Virus record (IMG/VR): IMGVR_UViG_2778261278_000008
Length of the DNA: 24,455 nucleotides
Direction: 5' to 3' (one strand)
DNA from: a virus
Taxonomy: Duplodnaviria; Heunggongvirae; Uroviricota; Caudoviricetes
Positions 3,873 to 10,132 of this stretch are shown piece by piece. The notes beneath the pieces were generated by a model. The model was not told where the DNA came from, did not search any database, and worked only from the letters and a program-made list of their open reading frames with translations. The position numbers were made by a program, and so were the translations under genes. The first letter of the stretch is position 1. Every line of letters starts with the position of its first letter.

Positions 3873-3934
3873 GTATATTTATCTCATGGCTTGTTCTGAT
3901 TATTTCGGTGGCCTGCGCCATTGGGATTATGTGA
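3869..3934 (+). CDS. Candidate 21-aa hydrophobic micropeptide (MSIFISWLVLIISVACAIGIM)
   Basis: ATG overlaps the stop of the upstream gene (ATGA), suggesting translational coupling. Entirely hydrophobic, single predicted TM helix. Too short for the ORF track. Confidence 0.3.
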   Translation: MSIFISWLVLIISVACAIGIM

Positions 3935-4074
3935 ATTATTCATTCAGTAAAAAAGATTGAACGCTTTTTCACTGACAAATAACAGATTAAACAAAACCCC
4001 AGATTAAACCCGAAAACCTGAAAACTATCCGCATTCGCGGAGGTATTCGCACACGTAAATAACGGAGATATAAA

Positions 4075-4491
4075 ATGAACGCAAAAGAAAAAAATATTAT
4101 CAATACATTAAAAATAGTGTCAGCAGAGCAAGACAAGCCGTCCAGGGCAGCCCAGAAAGATAATCAACATATGGCAGCGCTTTACGCACTGACCATCGCA
4201 ATAGCCACCTCTGAAGCAGCCAAAGTTATTGAGGAACAGAGCAAAGAAATCGACACTCTTAAAACACAGTCAACAGTTGCAGCCATGAATCCGTCCAGCA
4301 TTGGACGCTGCATTTATATTCTTGGTTCAGCAATGATGCTGCAATACACCATTATTGCCGAACTGCACGGCAAATACCTGATAACGCCTTACCACACAAA
4401 AGAGTCAGAGCTTCTGACAAATCTCCGCCTGATAGAACGCTCTCAAGCTGTATTCATTGATGACGCGCAACGTGCCGTATTTAACGCATAG
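4075..4491 (+). CDS. Hypothetical early-region protein
   Basis: 138-aa ORF with GGAG RBS 7 nt upstream; follows an AT-rich 140-bp spacer. Confidence 0.55.
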   Translation: MNAKEKNIINTLKIVSAEQDKPSRAAQKDNQHMAALYALTIAIATSEAAKVIEEQSKEIDTLKTQSTVAAMNPSSIGRCIYILGSAMMLQYTIIAELHGKYLITPYHTKESELLTNLRLIERSQAVFIDDAQRAVFNA

Positions 4492-4981: not shown

Positions 4982-5268
4982 GCACCATCAACCACCAGAA
5001 GCTACGCGAACTGGCATTTGCCCTGCAACGAATGGCAACGCCTCAAAAATTACTGGCATTTCGCGCAATGCTCTCGCCGTCTGCTGTGCTGGCACTGCTG
5101 GATGAGCTGGAGCACGCCAGAACCACGGCTCCTGCCATTCGCCTGACGCTCCATCATGAAATCGCTGATTTCTGCGCGACGTTGGAGGCGCCGGGCGAAC
5201 CGGAAACGCCGGAAGCAATACAGCAAGAGCTGCTGCAACGCATTGACAAGGTTTTTGATTTTTTCTGA
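4978..5268 (+). CDS. Hypothetical early-region protein
   Basis: 96-aa ORF, translationally coupled to the upstream gene. Confidence 0.55.
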   Translation: MSTINHQKLRELAFALQRMATPQKLLAFRAMLSPSAVLALLDELEHARTTAPAIRLTLHHEIADFCATLEAPGEPETPEAIQQELLQRIDKVFDFF

Positions 5269-5398
5269 ACCAGTAAGAAACCAGAACATGCACACACAAA
5301 AAAACCGCTTGCCATGCCTCAATAGGTCAGGTTACATTTCCGCTGCACCTCATAAAACGGGTGCCGGGATTCTCAACCCGACACAGAGCAAAGCGCAT

Positions 5399-5419
5399 AA
5401 CCGCGCAAGCGGTTTTTTT
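5399..5419 (+). terminator. Rho-independent terminator (stem AACCGC / loop GCAA / GCGGTT followed by a T7 run)
   Basis: Hairpin with GNRA-type loop followed immediately by TTTTTTT, 130 bp downstream of the stop at 5268. Confidence 0.55.
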
Positions 5420-5598
5420 GTGCGTACTGTATTGCCACGTCTTTTTCGCGTCAGAATTATGGCGGGGCGTACGGGGCCGACTTTGGTCGGGCCGGATTCT
5501 TTGCTCTCCGGTGTTGAGAACCCTGTACGTCTCGCCACCCCGAGATTCTCAACTCTGGATGGTGAGTTATTTCTATCACCGAGCAAAGAGGCCACACC

Positions 5599-5829
5599 AT
5601 GGCAAACCGCAAACAGCACCGCGCTATCGCGGAGCGTCGTCACATCCAGACTGAAATCAACCGCAGACTTTCCCGCACATCACGCGTCGCGCAAATCATG
5701 CACATCAATATGCTGCATGAGCGCAGCCACGCACTATCAAACATTTATTCCGCCTCTGTTTTCAGCTATCTGGCGGATGATCTGCACGAGCTTCAACAGC
5801 TCATCCAACAGCAAAACAAACTCCATTAA
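5599..5829 (+). CDS. Hypothetical protein
   Basis: 76-aa ORF with AAGAGG RBS 7 nt upstream; first gene after the noncoding island. Confidence 0.5.
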   Translation: MANRKQHRAIAERRHIQTEINRRLSRTSRVAQIMHINMLHERSHALSNIYSASVFSYLADDLHELQQLIQQQNKLH

Positions 5830-5901
5830 TTCCTGTTCCGGGCCTTTCCTGCACCTTGCGGCGGGAGGCCTTCGCACATCTGTAACAAGAGGATTGCCGC
5901 A

Positions 5902-6267
5902 ATGATTCTCGCCAACGACTTTCTTGAATACCTGCTCAACACAGAACGTGATCTTGCCGCTCGCGTGCGTGATCGTTATGACATGTACCTGAAATCCCTG
6001 CCTGTACCGCAGCTCGCTGACGGAAAGATTGTTATTGATGGTCGCTACATGATTGACAGCCACGAGGGAAATTACAGGCTTTACCGCATTGAAGGTGGCA
6101 CCCCGTCCGTTATTGGCATTTACCAGCGCCCATCCTCTGCAATCGTCGATGTGATTGCCGACAGCATCCGCATCACACATCGCCATGCCGACACAGAAGA
6201 CACCGTGCTGGAAATTCAGCGGCTGGCTACAGTCTGCCGCGACACCCTGAATGGCATGACGAAGTAA
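5902..6267 (+). CDS. Hypothetical protein immediately upstream of replication gene A
   Basis: 121-aa ORF with AAGAGG RBS 9 nt upstream. Confidence 0.55.
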   Translation: MILANDFLEYLLNTERDLAARVRDRYDMYLKSLPVPQLADGKIVIDGRYMIDSHEGNYRLYRIEGGTPSVIGIYQRPSSAIVDVIADSIRITHRHADTEDTVLEIQRLATVCRDTLNGMTK

Positions 6268-6273
6268 ATCACT

Positions 6274-9096
6274 ATGACGGCAGAGTACATCAGGGACTGG
6301 CAACAACCGCGCCACGCAGTGGGGCGTGAAGGAACGGGGATCCCCGCTCCTGAATCCGCGCTTTCCTCCTGGCTGGATGCCTACCGGGTAGAGAACGAGC
6401 GCCGCCAGGAAATGGCTGATGCGGCGTTCTCCGCAACGCCGCTGGGCAACCTGATTAATAAAAGCCTGGACGCACAGGAAAAACAGGACAAAACCATCAC
6501 ACTGGCAGGAGACGCCAGAAAACAGGCACGCGGCGCGGTGGATGAAGCCATGGCCTCGCTGCGCCTGCTGCCGTCCTATCTGCGCGATCCGCTTATTCGC
6601 CACCTCTCCTTCCTGCGCAAAAAACAGGAAGCCGATCGCAGGAAAGGCAAAAAGAGCTGGCAGGCGGAACGCTATGCATGCGGAACCCTGCGCAAAATAT
6701 TCGAACGTCTGGATCGCACTGACGGACGCTGGCTGACACCGGGTTATCGCTCCCTTGCCGGACGCGAACGCCTGGATGATTTGCTTTACCTGCCGCAGCT
6801 CAACAAACGCCAGATACAGACGCTGGCCACCATGACGGCGGCGATGTTCAGCAGCACCTTCGAAAAACTCTGCGATGGCTTTGGCGCGACTAATGGTGAA
6901 CTAACCATGGATGTAACGCTGAAGGCGTATCAGATGCTGGCCCGCATGGCGTTACACCTGCACGCCATGCCTCCACATTATGACGCACTGACAACAGACA
7001 AAGACCGGAGGAACGAACCGGACACGGAGCTGCTGCCGGGCGCAATCCTTCGCCTGACCTGTGCGGAATGGTGGAAACGCAAACTGTGGCTGGTACGTTG
7101 CGAGTGGAGAGAAGAACAACTCCGCGCCGCCTGTCTGGTTTCCAGAAAAACATCGCCCTATCTGAGCCAGGACGCGTTAAGCGAGTTTCGCGCACAGCGC
7201 GAGAAAACACGCGATTTCCTGAAAAGTTTCATGCTGGAAAACGAAGACGGGTTCACGATTGATCTCGAGACAGTGTATTACGCGGGAGTAAGTAACCCGG
7301 TTCACCGTAAGGCAGAAATGATGGCCACCATGAAGGGACTGGAACTTCTGGCCGAAGCCCGTGGCGACAGAGCGGTGTTTCTGACTGTCACCTGCCCGTC
7401 AAAATACCACGCAACAACGGAGAACGGTCATCCGAACCCCAAATGGAACGGGGCCACCATGCGCGACTCCAGCGATTACCTGGTTAACACGTTTTTTGCG
7501 GCGGTCCGCAAAAAACTGAACCGCGACGGCCTGCGCTGGTATGGCATCCGCACGGTGGAGCCTCACCATGACGGCACCGTGCACTGGCATATGATGGTCT
7601 TTGCTCATCCGGAAGAAATCGACAGCATCGTGGCCATCACCCGCGATATTGCCATTCAGGAAGACCGCCACGAGCTGGGCAATGATATTACTCCGCGCTT
7701 TAAGGTGGAGTATGTCGACGGCTCAAAAGGCACACCAACCAGCTATATCGCGACCTACATCGGAAAAAACCTGGACAGCCGCGCCATGGATGGCATCGAC
7801 CCGAAAACGGGCAAACCACGCGTTGACTACGAAACCGGAAAATCAATGGCCGAGAGCGTGGAGCGCGCCATCGGTTGGGCACGCCTTCACCGGGTCCGCC
7901 AGTTCCAGTTCTTTGGCATCCCCTCCCGTCAGGTGTGGCGTGAACTCCGCCGCCTTGCCAGCCAGATGGCACGCAACCCGGAAGGCCCGCAACGGCTGAA
8001 GGATGACGCAATGGATGCGGTACTCGCTGCCGCTGATGCCGGATGTTTTGCCACCTACATAGAGAAACAGGGCGGCGTACTTGTTCCACGCAAAGACTAC
8101 CTGATTCGCACCGCCTACGACCTCGCCGATGAGCTGAACGATTACGGCGAACAGAGCGTACAGATTTACGGGATCTGGTCACCACTCATCGGGGAATCCT
8201 CCCGTGTATGCACGCATCCGGATAACTGGAAGCTGGTAAGACGCAAACCGGAAGCGGAAGACAGCGCCCGCGAAAATGGTTTTGACCTTCAGGGCGGCCC
8301 TGCCGCCCCTTGGACTCGTGGCAATAACTGTCCCCGTGTACAGGAAACAGACAACAACGGGACAGAACAGCCGGAAGAACGGCCAGCACCGTGGCCGCAG
8401 CTCCCTGACGGCGTTGAAGTGAACGAATGGATGCATTCACTGAAACGGCACGAACGCCGGGCGCTGATGCGTTCGCTGCGTGACAAACAGGCAAAAAACA
8501 GCAGTGATGAAATGCAGAGCTGGACACAGAGCCGCAAACAGCAGCGGCCTTTGCCTGATAACCACGAATTACTCGCTAAAGAATGGCGGGAGTCTGCTGA
8601 ATCTCTCGGCCTGCATATCGGTGAACAGCAGATGCAGCACCTGTTACGGGGCGGCAGTCTGTACGTTGACGGCAGCATCATTGCACCGCAGGGATTTGAA
8701 ATTGTACGCAAACCGGATACCCGACCGGACAGCCGGATCACGCAGCTCTGGCAGCGCCTGAGCCGTAACCACGGCGTAAGCAGTACGGAGATCCGCCATA
8801 ACCCGGTCGCCAGCTATCTGGAACAGCTGGGGGCATCAGACCCCGAAGCCGCCGCACGCCTGGCATCCACACTTCAGCAGGACCAGAACACCATGAAAAC
8901 ACCCGTTACCGTGCTTTCTGACATGCTGCGCGCCATCCGCGACGCAGAGCACGCACAGAGAATCAGTGAAACTACTGAACGCGCCCGCCGCAAAGCAGAC
9001 CTGCTGCGGGGTGGCCTGACCAGTGGAAACAAAAAACAGACAGAAACGGGATTCACAAATCCCGTAAATGAGCAAAAAACGCGCCGCGATATATGA
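6274..9096 (+). CDS. A: Rolling-circle replication initiator endonuclease (P2 gpA family, HUH superfamily)
   Basis: 940-aa ORF with HUH motif (GTVHWHMMVF) and a Y-x3-Y catalytic tyrosine pair (SYIATYIGKNLD) downstream, as in P2/186 A proteins. Located after the early small ORFs as in P2. Confidence 0.9.
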   Translation: MTAEYIRDWQQPRHAVGREGTGIPAPESALSSWLDAYRVENERRQEMADAAFSATPLGNLINKSLDAQEKQDKTITLAGDARKQARGAVDEAMASLRLLPSYLRDPLIRHLSFLRKKQEADRRKGKKSWQAERYACGTLRKIFERLDRTDGRWLTPGYRSLAGRERLDDLLYLPQLNKRQIQTLATMTAAMFSSTFEKLCDGFGATNGELTMDVTLKAYQMLARMALHLHAMPPHYDALTTDKDRRNEPDTELLPGAILRLTCAEWWKRKLWLVRCEWREEQLRAACLVSRKTSPYLSQDALSEFRAQREKTRDFLKSFMLENEDGFTIDLETVYYAGVSNPVHRKAEMMATMKGLELLAEARGDRAVFLTVTCPSKYHATTENGHPNPKWNGATMRDSSDYLVNTFFAAVRKKLNRDGLRWYGIRTVEPHHDGTVHWHMMVFAHPEEIDSIVAITRDIAIQEDRHELGNDITPRFKVEYVDGSKGTPTSYIATYIGKNLDSRAMDGIDPKTGKPRVDYETGKSMAESVERAIGWARLHRVRQFQFFGIPSRQVWRELRRLASQMARNPEGPQRLKDDAMDAVLAAADAGCFATYIEKQGGVLVPRKDYLIRTAYDLADELNDYGEQSVQIYGIWSPLIGESSRVCTHPDNWKLVRRKPEAEDSARENGFDLQGGPAAPWTRGNNCPRVQETDNNGTEQPEERPAPWPQLPDGVEVNEWMHSLKRHERRALMRSLRDKQAKNSSDEMQSWTQSRKQQRPLPDNHELLAKEWRESAESLGLHIGEQQMQHLLRGGSLYVDGSIIAPQGFEIVRKPDTRPDSRITQLWQRLSRNHGVSSTEIRHNPVASYLEQLGASDPEAAARLASTLQQDQNTMKTPVTVLSDMLRAIRDAEHAQRISETTERARRKADLLRGGLTSGNKKQTETGFTNPVNEQKTRRDI

Positions 9097-9172: not shown

Positions 9173-10132
9173 ATGAAAATTTGTATCGATGACGGCTCCA
9201 CCAACATCAAGCTGGCATGGACTGAGAACGGCGAACGCCGCAACGCCATCAGCCCGAACAGCTTCAAGTCGGAATGGTCTGCGCCGTTCGGTGGCACGCA
9301 GCCCGCGAACTACATGCTTGATGGCGTGCGCTATGGTTTTGATCCGGTCAGTGATCGCTTTGTCCAGACGACCGACACGCAATACCAGTACAGCGATGTG
9401 AATGTCATTGCCATTCATCACGCGCTGGTCAAATCAGGCATCACACCACAGGAAGTGGATGTGGTTGTCACCCTGCCACTGAGCGAATATTTCGACACAA
9501 ACGCACAGCCGGACATGGCCAACATCAACCGCAAAAAAGCAAACGTCATGCGCCCGGTGGCGTGCCAGAACGGAAAAGCATTCACTATCCGTAACGTACG
9601 AGTTATGCCTGAATCCATTCCGGCTGGTTTTAAAGCACTGGCTGACATGAGTCCGTTTGAATCCCTGCTGATTGTGGATTTAGGCGGAACCACGCTGGAT
9701 GTGGCAAAGGTTCAGGGACAACTGGCAGGTATCAGCCAGGTGTTTTGCGATCCACACGTAGGCGTTTCCCTGATGGCCGATGCCGTACTGTCGGTGATGG
9801 CCACTAACGGTATGCGTACCAGTCACCACATCGCCAATACCATTATCGAACATCGCCATGATGAAGCCTGGCTGCGCCAGCACATCCACAATGACGCGCA
9901 TTACGCCAGCCTGATGGCGGTTATTCGTGAAAAGGAAGAAACACTGAAACAACGCGTGATCCGCGCGCTGGCGGTTTTTTCGGGTTACGGGCGGGTGATG
10001 GTTGTCGGTGGCGGGGCGGAGATTGTGGCACCCGCTATCCGCGAAGCCTGCGGAGTTAATGCGACTTTCATCGCGGACGGGGTGCCACAGTTTGCTCTGG
10101 TTAATGGGCTGTACGCAATGGACAAGGAGTAA
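9173..10132 (+). CDS. parM: Actin-like segregation ATPase, ParM/StbA family
   Basis: 319-aa ORF with actin-fold motifs: phosphate-1 ICIDDGSTNIKL, phosphate-2 LIVDLGGTTLD, adenosine VVGGGAEIV. N-terminus closely resembles R1 plasmid ParM as recalled (MLVFIDDGSTNIKLQW...ISPNSFK..EW). RBS AAGGAAAA. Confidence 0.85.
   Translation: MKICIDDGSTNIKLAWTENGERRNAISPNSFKSEWSAPFGGTQPANYMLDGVRYGFDPVSDRFVQTTDTQYQYSDVNVIAIHHALVKSGITPQEVDVVVTLPLSEYFDTNAQPDMANINRKKANVMRPVACQNGKAFTIRNVRVMPESIPAGFKALADMSPFESLLIVDLGGTTLDVAKVQGQLAGISQVFCDPHVGVSLMADAVLSVMATNGMRTSHHIANTIIEHRHDEAWLRQHIHNDAHYASLMAVIREKEETLKQRVIRALAVFSGYGRVMVVGGGAEIVAPAIREACGVNATFIADGVPQFALVNGLYAMDKE

Follow-up and report, generated by a model that had tools for sequence, protein, structure and literature searches.

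What is encoded by the 330-bp noncoding island that interrupts the early operon of the viral record IMGVR_UViG_2778261278_000008, and which genes does it control? The window, that is, the whole stretch of 24,455 nucleotides analyzed here, is the left part of a P2-family Escherichia coli prophage, and the island occupies positions 5269–5598, immediately after a series of small early open reading frames (ORFs) and before the genes that lead into replication. A first-pass annotation had proposed either an attenuator or a small regulatory RNA at this place. The island is very probably an IsrK–C4 antisense-RNA immunity cassette of the P4/P1 type, carried by a P88-like (Xuanwuvirus, P2-family) prophage within its early operon. 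The membership of both RNAs in known families, their complementarity, and the co-change of the C4 loops with both sets of target sites are established.

An Rfam scan of the whole window gave exactly two matches, both within the island and both above the curated gathering thresholds. The first, RF01394 (isrK, 'isrK Hfq binding RNA'), covers 5345–5419 on the plus strand at full length (model positions 1–77; 61.9 bits, cut-off 50, E = 3e-11) and corresponds to a 75-nt IsrK/SeqA-type leader RNA. Its minimum-energy fold (z = −2.9) gives three hairpins, namely hairpin 1 (5345–5364), hairpin 2 (5365–5380), and the intrinsic terminator (5399–5419), in which a stem at 5399–5414 (AACCGC-GCAA-GCGGTT) is followed by T7; this is the sole terminator-like site on the plus strand between 4500 and 6500. 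Upstream, a promoter scan finds a sigma-70-type promoter on the plus strand (5309–5338; TTGCCA at 5309–5314, an 18-nt spacer, TACATT at 5333–5338), from which transcription is predicted to start at G5345. Neither hexamer varies among 28 distinct P88-like relatives (about 90% identity), the set used throughout for covariation and conservation counts. From the predicted promoter and terminator, IsrK would be expressed as a discrete small RNA (sRNA) of about 75 nt, and its family name together with the U7 tail makes it a putative Hfq ligand. The first-pass annotation had placed the terminator, the promoter, and a transcript of roughly 75 nt at these same positions, and its small regulatory RNA with its own promoter proves correct nearly to the base, the RNA being assigned by Rfam to the IsrK/SeqA family.

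The second match, RF01695 (C4 antisense RNA, clan CL00128), lies at 5455–5542 on the plus strand and is again full-length (model positions 1–87; 77.6 bits, cut-off 45, E = 7e-14). The RNA folds at −47.1 kcal/mol (z = −5.2) into a long closing stem around two hairpins, at 5477–5490 and 5491–5512. The loop of hairpin 2 presents the recognition element b′ (UCUUUGCUCU, 5498–5507), and a second recognition element, a′ (GUUGAGAA, 5513–5520), is single-stranded between hairpin 2 and the closing stem. Mature C4 is predicted to comprise about 79 nt (5461–5539) by alignment to the mapped ends of P1 C4, with which the conserved AAUUAU|GG leader and the 3′ GCCACC line up, and by the same analogy it is probably matured from a longer precursor by RNase P at the 5′ end. 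A possible promoter of its own at 5432–5460 (TTGCCA, 17-nt spacer, AATTAT) was rejected and is probably no promoter, because its −10 hexamer coincides with the conserved AAUUAU leader, where RNase P is predicted to cut, so that a start there would truncate C4, and because its −35 hexamer varies among relatives (TCGCCA, TTGCTA).

The exposed parts of C4 are complementary to two pairs of sites on the same strand. Within IsrK, the a1 target (UUCUCAAC, 5370–5377) lies in the loop of hairpin 2 and is complementary to a′, and the b1 target (AGAGCAAAG, 5385–5393), complementary to b′, is single-stranded between hairpin 2 and the terminator. Downstream, the a2 target (UUCUCAAC, 5546–5553) begins 7 nt past the predicted 3′ end of C4, and the b2 target (GAGCAAAGA, 5581–5589) overlaps the Shine–Dalgarno sequence AAGAGG (5586–5591) of an epsilon-like ORF with its ATG at 5599. 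A repeat search recovers the same sites as two direct repeats, CCGrGATTCTCAAC (5364–5377 and 5540–5553) and CACmGAGCAAAG (5382–5393 and 5577–5588), both complementary to exposed parts of C4. The a′:a1 and a′:a2 duplexes comprise 8 bp each, b′:b1 comprises 9 bp, and the 10-bp b′:b2 duplex (−14.3 kcal/mol) covers the Shine–Dalgarno sequence. In the minimum-energy fold of the read-through RNA, b′ and a′ pair with b2 and a2 in cis, sequestering the ribosome-binding site. Thus the hallmarks of P1 immI and P4-type cassettes are found here: on one transcript, a′ and b′ have complements both before C4 (a1/b1) and after it (a2/b2), and b2 overlaps the ribosome-binding site of the first downstream ORF. 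The a and b motifs occur in the window almost solely at these sites; two stray b-like 8-mers (at 4239 and 7599) without an a partner were considered as extra C4 targets and taken as chance occurrences. Between a2 and b2, the minimum-energy fold also forms a small hairpin (GGUGA...UCACC, 5561–5580, plus strand), the 3′ half of which differs between subtypes; by reading of the alignment, a hairpin appears to be kept in both.

Sequence variation among relatives provides the most direct evidence that these sites recognize one another. A pattern search with C4 hairpin 1 retrieved 120 IMG/VR loci, 105 of which have a P88-type cassette, in 28 distinct a/b configurations. Pairing was scored by column-wise pair counts, as run-length comparison of the a elements discriminated poorly because of their shared flanks. 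For a1:a′ and b1:b′ together, 94.3% of the cells form standard pairs, compared with 69.8% in shuffled controls and 27–55% when the partners are slid by 1–3 columns; double-sided changes occur in 11 of 17 pairs, and the covariation score is 0.595 (0.116 when shuffled). The downstream pairings a′:a2 and b′:b2 behave alike, with 94.7% of cells in standard pairs (70.7% shuffled, 41–48% slid by 1–3 columns), double-sided changes in 10 of 17 pairs, and a score of 0.602 (0.120 shuffled). The b elements taken alone are paired in 98.8% of cells for b1:b′, where seven of nine pairs show double changes, and in 98.4% for b′:b2. Column identity is 0.62–0.75 at the six sites, compared with 0.92 across the rest of the cassette. 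Among the 28 configurations, a′ comes in 7 types and b′ in 13, joined in 20 combinations; the window has a′ GUUGAGAA and b′ CUUUGCUCU, P88 has a′ GUGGAAA and b′ CUGUAGUUG, and in each of the two all four targets fit the resident C4. Across the set, a2 and b2 fit the resident C4 in 28/28 configurations, and a1 and b1 do so in 26/28. The two deviating loci, L005 (5133–5457) and L114 (10284–10608), carry in IsrK an a1 or b1 of another specificity while a2/b2 still match, which suggests that they are natural chimeras produced by recombination within the cassette; they amount to natural experiments on what IsrK does. Such co-changing loops and targets are the signature of RNA–RNA recognition under diversifying selection, that is, of immunity specificity. 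The series, with at least 20 compensated a′/b′ combinations on a near-identical backbone, offers ready material for the study of RNA heteroimmunity and orthogonal RNA–RNA recognition.

The same variation bears on two other explanations. IsrK might chiefly regulate host mRNAs in trans as an Hfq-dependent sRNA, independently of C4, as the Rfam family name and a terminator U7 tail typical of Hfq-binding sRNAs would allow; however, its single-stranded segments co-change with the C4 loops over at least 20 specificity combinations, and a conserved host target is unlikely because a fixed target could not follow these changes in a/b specificity, so that this role as the principal one is improbable. 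Still harder to credit is that the island codes for protein or has no function. Mechanically called ORFs (5156–5905 and 5361–5654) do span it, and the GenBank record of P88 has a minus-strand coding sequence (CDS) for a hypothetical protein over the equivalent region, but the two Rfam matches exceed their cut-offs, substitutions compensate between RNA sites and not by codon position, and in an identical genome the RefSeq annotation leaves the island free of CDSs.

The first gene after the cassette, and the first that it would regulate, encodes a 76-aa epsilon-like protein (5599–5829, plus strand) that matches the Pfam family PF25738 ('Derepression'; 30.1 bits, cut-off 27) and phrog_3688 (1.5e-45) and shows 27% identity to P4 epsilon by BLASTP (E = 2e-8). 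By this homology, the operon appears to encode an anti-repressor or derepression function, again as in cassettes of this type. It is followed on the same strand by orf121 (5902–6267), of unknown function, and by the gene for the replication initiator/nickase gpA (6274–9096; PF05840, 1.2e-130). No plus-strand terminator is predicted in between, up to position 6500, and both genes (5902–9096) are probably subject to polarity from the cassette.

On the IsrK–C4 reading, the promoter at 5309–5338 would start transcription at about 5345, and most transcripts would stop at the terminator (5399–5419), yielding the 75-nt IsrK with a1 and b1. Read-through transcripts, together with those from the early promoter, would run into the C4 precursor and be trimmed to C4 of about 79 nt (5461–5539). 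C4 would then pair through b′ and a′ with b2 (5581–5589) and a2 (5546–5553) on the mRNA, both in trans and, on unprocessed RNA, in cis, thereby burying the Shine–Dalgarno sequence of the epsilon-like anti-repressor gene and blocking its translation; the untranslated RNA would likely be terminated by Rho, leaving orf121 and gpA silent. IsrK, bearing the same two sites, would compete for C4 as a decoy or anti-antisense RNA, so that the IsrK:C4 ratio would set the switch, and IsrK may also serve as a C4-sensing leader. The scheme draws on analogy with P1, P4, and Gifsy-1 for the trimming of C4, the block of translation, polarity through Rho, and the action of IsrK as a decoy. The earlier idea of an attenuator between regulatory genes and the replication module survives in spirit, in that the cassette would gate the epsilon-like gene and gpA. 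It had been drawn from 5298–5419 only, however, and the remaining 180 bp (5420–5598), which consist of C4 and the downstream targets, were missed, and with them the main regulator, both pairs of target sites, and the masking of the ribosome-binding site.

Some points weigh against this scheme as a whole. For this locus, we infer the start site, the termination efficiency, the processing sites, and the Rho dependence. That the epsilon-like protein acts as an anti-repressor of the prophage's own C repressor is suggested by its 27% identity to P4 epsilon only. The chimeric loci L005 and L114 may mean either that a1/b1 pairing is not indispensable or that these elements are defective. Moreover, the sign of IsrK action is uncertain here, as IsrK is an activator in trans in Gifsy-1, whereas the corresponding P4 sequence is reported to be needed for the establishment of lysogeny.

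This last uncertainty leads to an alternative that is possible, although at less than an even chance: attenuation in the manner of P4, in which C4 would bind the nascent leader at a1/b1 (as well as a2/b2) and promote premature termination. IsrK would then be a by-product of this C4-dependent attenuation and belong to a negative autoregulatory loop by which immunity is maintained, and a1/b1 would not chiefly be a decoy. Both Rfam models also recognize P4, where CI RNA brings about termination when it pairs with seqA and seqC (PMC4825925; PMC3632133), and where the IsrK-like element is essential for establishing lysogeny and was required in transposon-directed insertion-site sequencing (TraDIS) (PMC3632133). 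In the window, b1 ends 5 nt ahead of the terminator stem (5393 compared with 5399), and a1/b1 covary with C4 as tightly as a2/b2 do. On the other hand, extra IsrK activates the Gifsy-1 operon and does not repress it, and the IsrK fold shows no alternative anti-terminator structure that C4 binding could resolve. Attenuation is compatible with the decoy scheme, and the two roles of IsrK may coexist.

The feature most stressed in the first-pass annotation, an inverted repeat flanking isrK, is the least supported as functional. The perfect 15-mer that had been described (5298–5312 and 5405–5419) is present, and the repeat search extends it to 21-nt plus-strand arms, 95% complementary, with an exact reverse-complement run of 18 nt that was reached in 0/300 shuffles of the upstream 110 nt. 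The upstream arm (ACACACAAAAAAACCGCTTGC, 5292–5312) overlaps the −35 hexamer of the IsrK promoter, with its A-tract at the position of an UP element, and is contained only in transcripts begun upstream, at the early promoter; the downstream arm (5405–5425) consists of the terminator loop, the 3′ arm, the U-tract, and GUGCGU. When 5285–5425 was folded, a long helix between the arms replaced the local terminator hairpin (−54.9 kcal/mol, z = −6.3). Conservation of the repeat, which the first-pass annotation had made a test of its reading, is seen in that both arms are kept in the 28 relatives, even in L010, L020, and L114, in which the promoter spacer and the sequence ahead of the upstream arm differ. 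Covariation across these relatives is absent: 13 of the 15 pairs never vary, and the T5310–A5407 pair that makes the 15-mer of the window perfect occurs in only 2/28.

The repeat could act as an RNA clamp that forms solely in early-promoter transcripts and sets their fate apart from that of RNAs begun at the IsrK promoter: RNase III might cut out the leader, for example, or the 3′ end might be protected, or termination might be altered. The 18-nt exact complement, the preference of the minimum-energy fold for the long helix, the retention of the arms beside differing flanks, and the recurrence of weaker upstream complements of the terminator 3′ half in ST64B/1720a-02, the P4-like L012, L027, and N15 are consistent with such a clamp. 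We nevertheless consider it doubtful: the pairs are nearly invariant, the overlap with the −35 hexamer and the A-tract at the UP position could by itself explain conservation of the upstream arm, P4 and an Stx phage were found to have no counterpart of the repeat, and a mimic of the 5′ arm pairing beside the U-tract would not obviously block termination. If the clamp exists, lytic and lysogenic transcripts would be handled differently at one terminator, by RNase III excision or altered termination.

The IsrK–C4 reading gains from comparison with characterized loci, of which P4 is the closest in layout. In P4, the isrK model matches the seqA region and the C4 model matches CI RNA, in the same order as in the window, and a −10-like hexamer, which we take to be that of PLE, lies at the same distance from the start of the isrK match. 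GUGAGAA (a2) and UUCACAGGAGG (b2, on the Shine–Dalgarno sequence of the first ORF) follow just after the RNA, and epsilon and the replication gene alpha are located downstream. The P4 arrangement of PLE, seqA, CI RNA with seqB, seqC, and then the epsilon ... alpha operon therefore matches that of the window, and in some P4-like satellites hairpin 1 of C4 is identical to that of P88-like phages. However, other small ORFs precede epsilon in P4, whereas the epsilon-like gene is the first gene after C4 in the window; P4 encodes the alpha primase–helicase, and the window encodes the P2-type nickase gpA; and P4 is a satellite, whereas the window belongs to a complete P2-like phage with its own C/Cox switch. 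The recognition sequences differ as well, and orf121 is not detectably related to P4 orf151 (no significant similarity, E = 0.16). The term 'IsrK-C4 immunity system of P4' is already in use (PMC3632133).

In the immI region of P1/P7, the elements a1, b1, C4, a2, and b2 occur in the order of the window and at similar spacing; the curated P1 record lists P51a/P51b, a1, b1, c4 (48343–48419), a2, b2, icd, and ant. As in the window, b′ is located in the loop of hairpin 2 with a′ on its 3′ side, b2 shortly precedes the start codon of the first ORF, and an anti-repressor is the regulated output. The IsrK promoter of the window is the positional equivalent of P4 PLE and of P1 P51b. P1 scores with the C4 model and with the related c4-a1b1 leader model (RF03163), not with isrK as the window does; its first ORF is icd, which encodes a cell-division inhibitor, its Ant is unrelated to epsilon, and its operon has no replication gene. 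Citron and Schuster reportedly described, in 1990, that P1/P7 heteroimmunity arises through changes in the c4 loops, which parallels the specificity types seen here.

The isrK-orf45(STnc1160)-anrP locus of Salmonella Gifsy-1, the founding member of the isrK family, shares with the window a short terminated IsrK beside a read-through mRNA, a processed C4-like RNA downstream, and an anti-repressor output. In Gifsy-1, the C4-like RNA STnc1160 is processed from the read-through transcript, and translation of the operon that follows rises more than 100-fold when IsrK is provided in trans (PMC4825925). The Gifsy-1 read-through RNA is self-repressed by cis pairing, comparable to the fold of the read-through RNA of the window. 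In contrast to the window, Gifsy-1 is a lambdoid prophage in which AnrP induces the AntQ antiterminator, and its published model centers on IsrK acting on the mRNA, not on the C4 repressor. The anti-immunity locus of N15, a linear plasmid-prophage, also contains the IsrK + C4 tandem (L129), its annotated terminator corresponding to that of IsrK, and a small processed RNA there controls an anti-repressor operon. The N15 operon is reported to be under SOS control; no LexA box was found near the island of the window.

Tandem IsrK and C4 matches are also present in the Citrobacter phage Shae_phiSM (Xuanwuvirus), in Stx phages, ST64B, N15, and many P4-like satellites, and in three annotated lambdoid records the tandem lies upstream of Rha-type or antirepressor genes. 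The early regions of P2 and 186 gave no IsrK or C4 match even at E ≤ 0.1, and the cassette is therefore not a general feature of the P2 family. In a separate P4-like IMG/VR element (L027:1195–2052), three C4 copies (1195–1282, 1578–1668, and 1965–2052) stand in tandem with IsrK copies between them, as an array of immunity RNAs.

Helper-type and satellite cassettes are related in a further respect: their a elements can be swapped between strands. The window has a′ GUUGAGAA with targets UUCUCAAC, as against a′ UUCUCAC with targets GUGAGAA in the CI RNA of P4 (L002), and P88 (L001) has a′ GUGGAAA as against UUUCCAC in the P4-like L012. Consequently, the C4 RNA of a helper-type phage could form base pairs with that of a satellite at a′. 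The b elements show no correspondence between the P88-type and P4-type lineages, and no full a/b combination is common to the 23 P88-type and 45 P4-type combinations, which share single elements only. Whether a pool of a/b elements spanning P88-like and P4-like cassettes enables mutual titration or silencing of C4 and CI can be raised as a conjecture; taken jointly with the reading of the inverted repeat as a device that distinguishes transcripts by promoter of origin, it is unlikely. On this conjecture the pool is partly shared, in two cases with the elements on opposite strands of the duplex, and such mutual silencing would be an arms race between helper and satellite at the RNA level. One contig, L021, carries a P88-type IsrK–C4 cassette (266–463) and a P4-type C4 (8633–8720) with different a′/b′, 8.3 kb apart, and may represent a helper-type prophage and a satellite side by side.

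Although the cassette is of the P4 type, the carrier element is a P2-like phage and not a satellite, as judged from its genes. Around the island, the window has about 91–93% identity to P88 and other Xuanwuvirus records. It does not have the make-up of a P4-like satellite (alpha primase, sid, delta, and psu, with no structural genes), and it encodes a P2-type gpA, a Cox-like protein, and a C-like repressor; these genes and the match to the complete P2-like phage P88 identify the host element as non-satellite. The gene order begins on the minus strand with an integrase gene (1–1002) and a 134-aa C-like helix-turn-helix (HTH) repressor gene (2051–2455). On the plus strand, genes for an Arc-like repressor (phrog_3431, 2531–2737) and a Cox-like protein (phrog_575, 2754–2957) are followed by small early ORFs up to 5268, the island, the epsilon-like gene, orf121, the gpA gene, and a gene for a ParM/StbA actin-like segregation protein (9173–10132; PF06406, 1.6e-81). 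The island is the longest noncoding gap of the early region, but it is not quite the only long one, as the first-pass annotation had it, a second ORF-free gap of 202 bp being present at 3873–4074. A scan of the window for tRNA and tmRNA genes found none.

Of 5426 complete E. coli genomes, 1173 contain the island; an RNA immunity cassette of the P4/P1 type is thus carried by a very common prophage lineage of this species. In one 100% identical genome inspected, RefSeq has no RNA annotation at the island. The E. coli lysogen EC21Z-048 is 100% identical to the window across the island. The GenBank record of P88 shows a hypothetical protein on the minus strand (L001:5033–5221, equivalent to about 5350–5538 of the window) exactly over IsrK and C4, and another record labels the island region 'similar to ash family protein'; both are probably spurious annotations of RNA genes. 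The two RNA families and the logic of the cassette are already established in the literature (PMC3632133), and a literature search found no account of an IsrK–C4 cassette in P88-like or P2-family phages. What is added here is chiefly the compensated specificity series and the link between helper and satellite, as helper-type phages and P4 satellites are tied together in their regulatory core by the common cassette and the epsilon homologue. P2-like phages with the cassette would possess a second, RNA-based layer of immunity atop the C/Cox switch, absent from P2 and 186, because the cassette stands directly before the epsilon-like anti-repressor gene and the replication initiator gene.

Three smaller observations concern the genes around the island. 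The Arc-like and Cox-like pair opens the early operon (2531–2957), facing the HTH repressor gene, and makes this switch region richer than that of P2. Between the epsilon-like ORF and orf121, a gap of 72 nt (5830–5901) contains a GC-rich palindromic stretch (GGGCCTTTCC...GGGAGGCC) without a T-run. Farther downstream, a small ORF comes after the ParM-like gene, and in the identical RefSeq genome the gene that follows belongs to a plasmid partitioning/stability family, which places plasmid-type partition genes within an integrated P2-like prophage.

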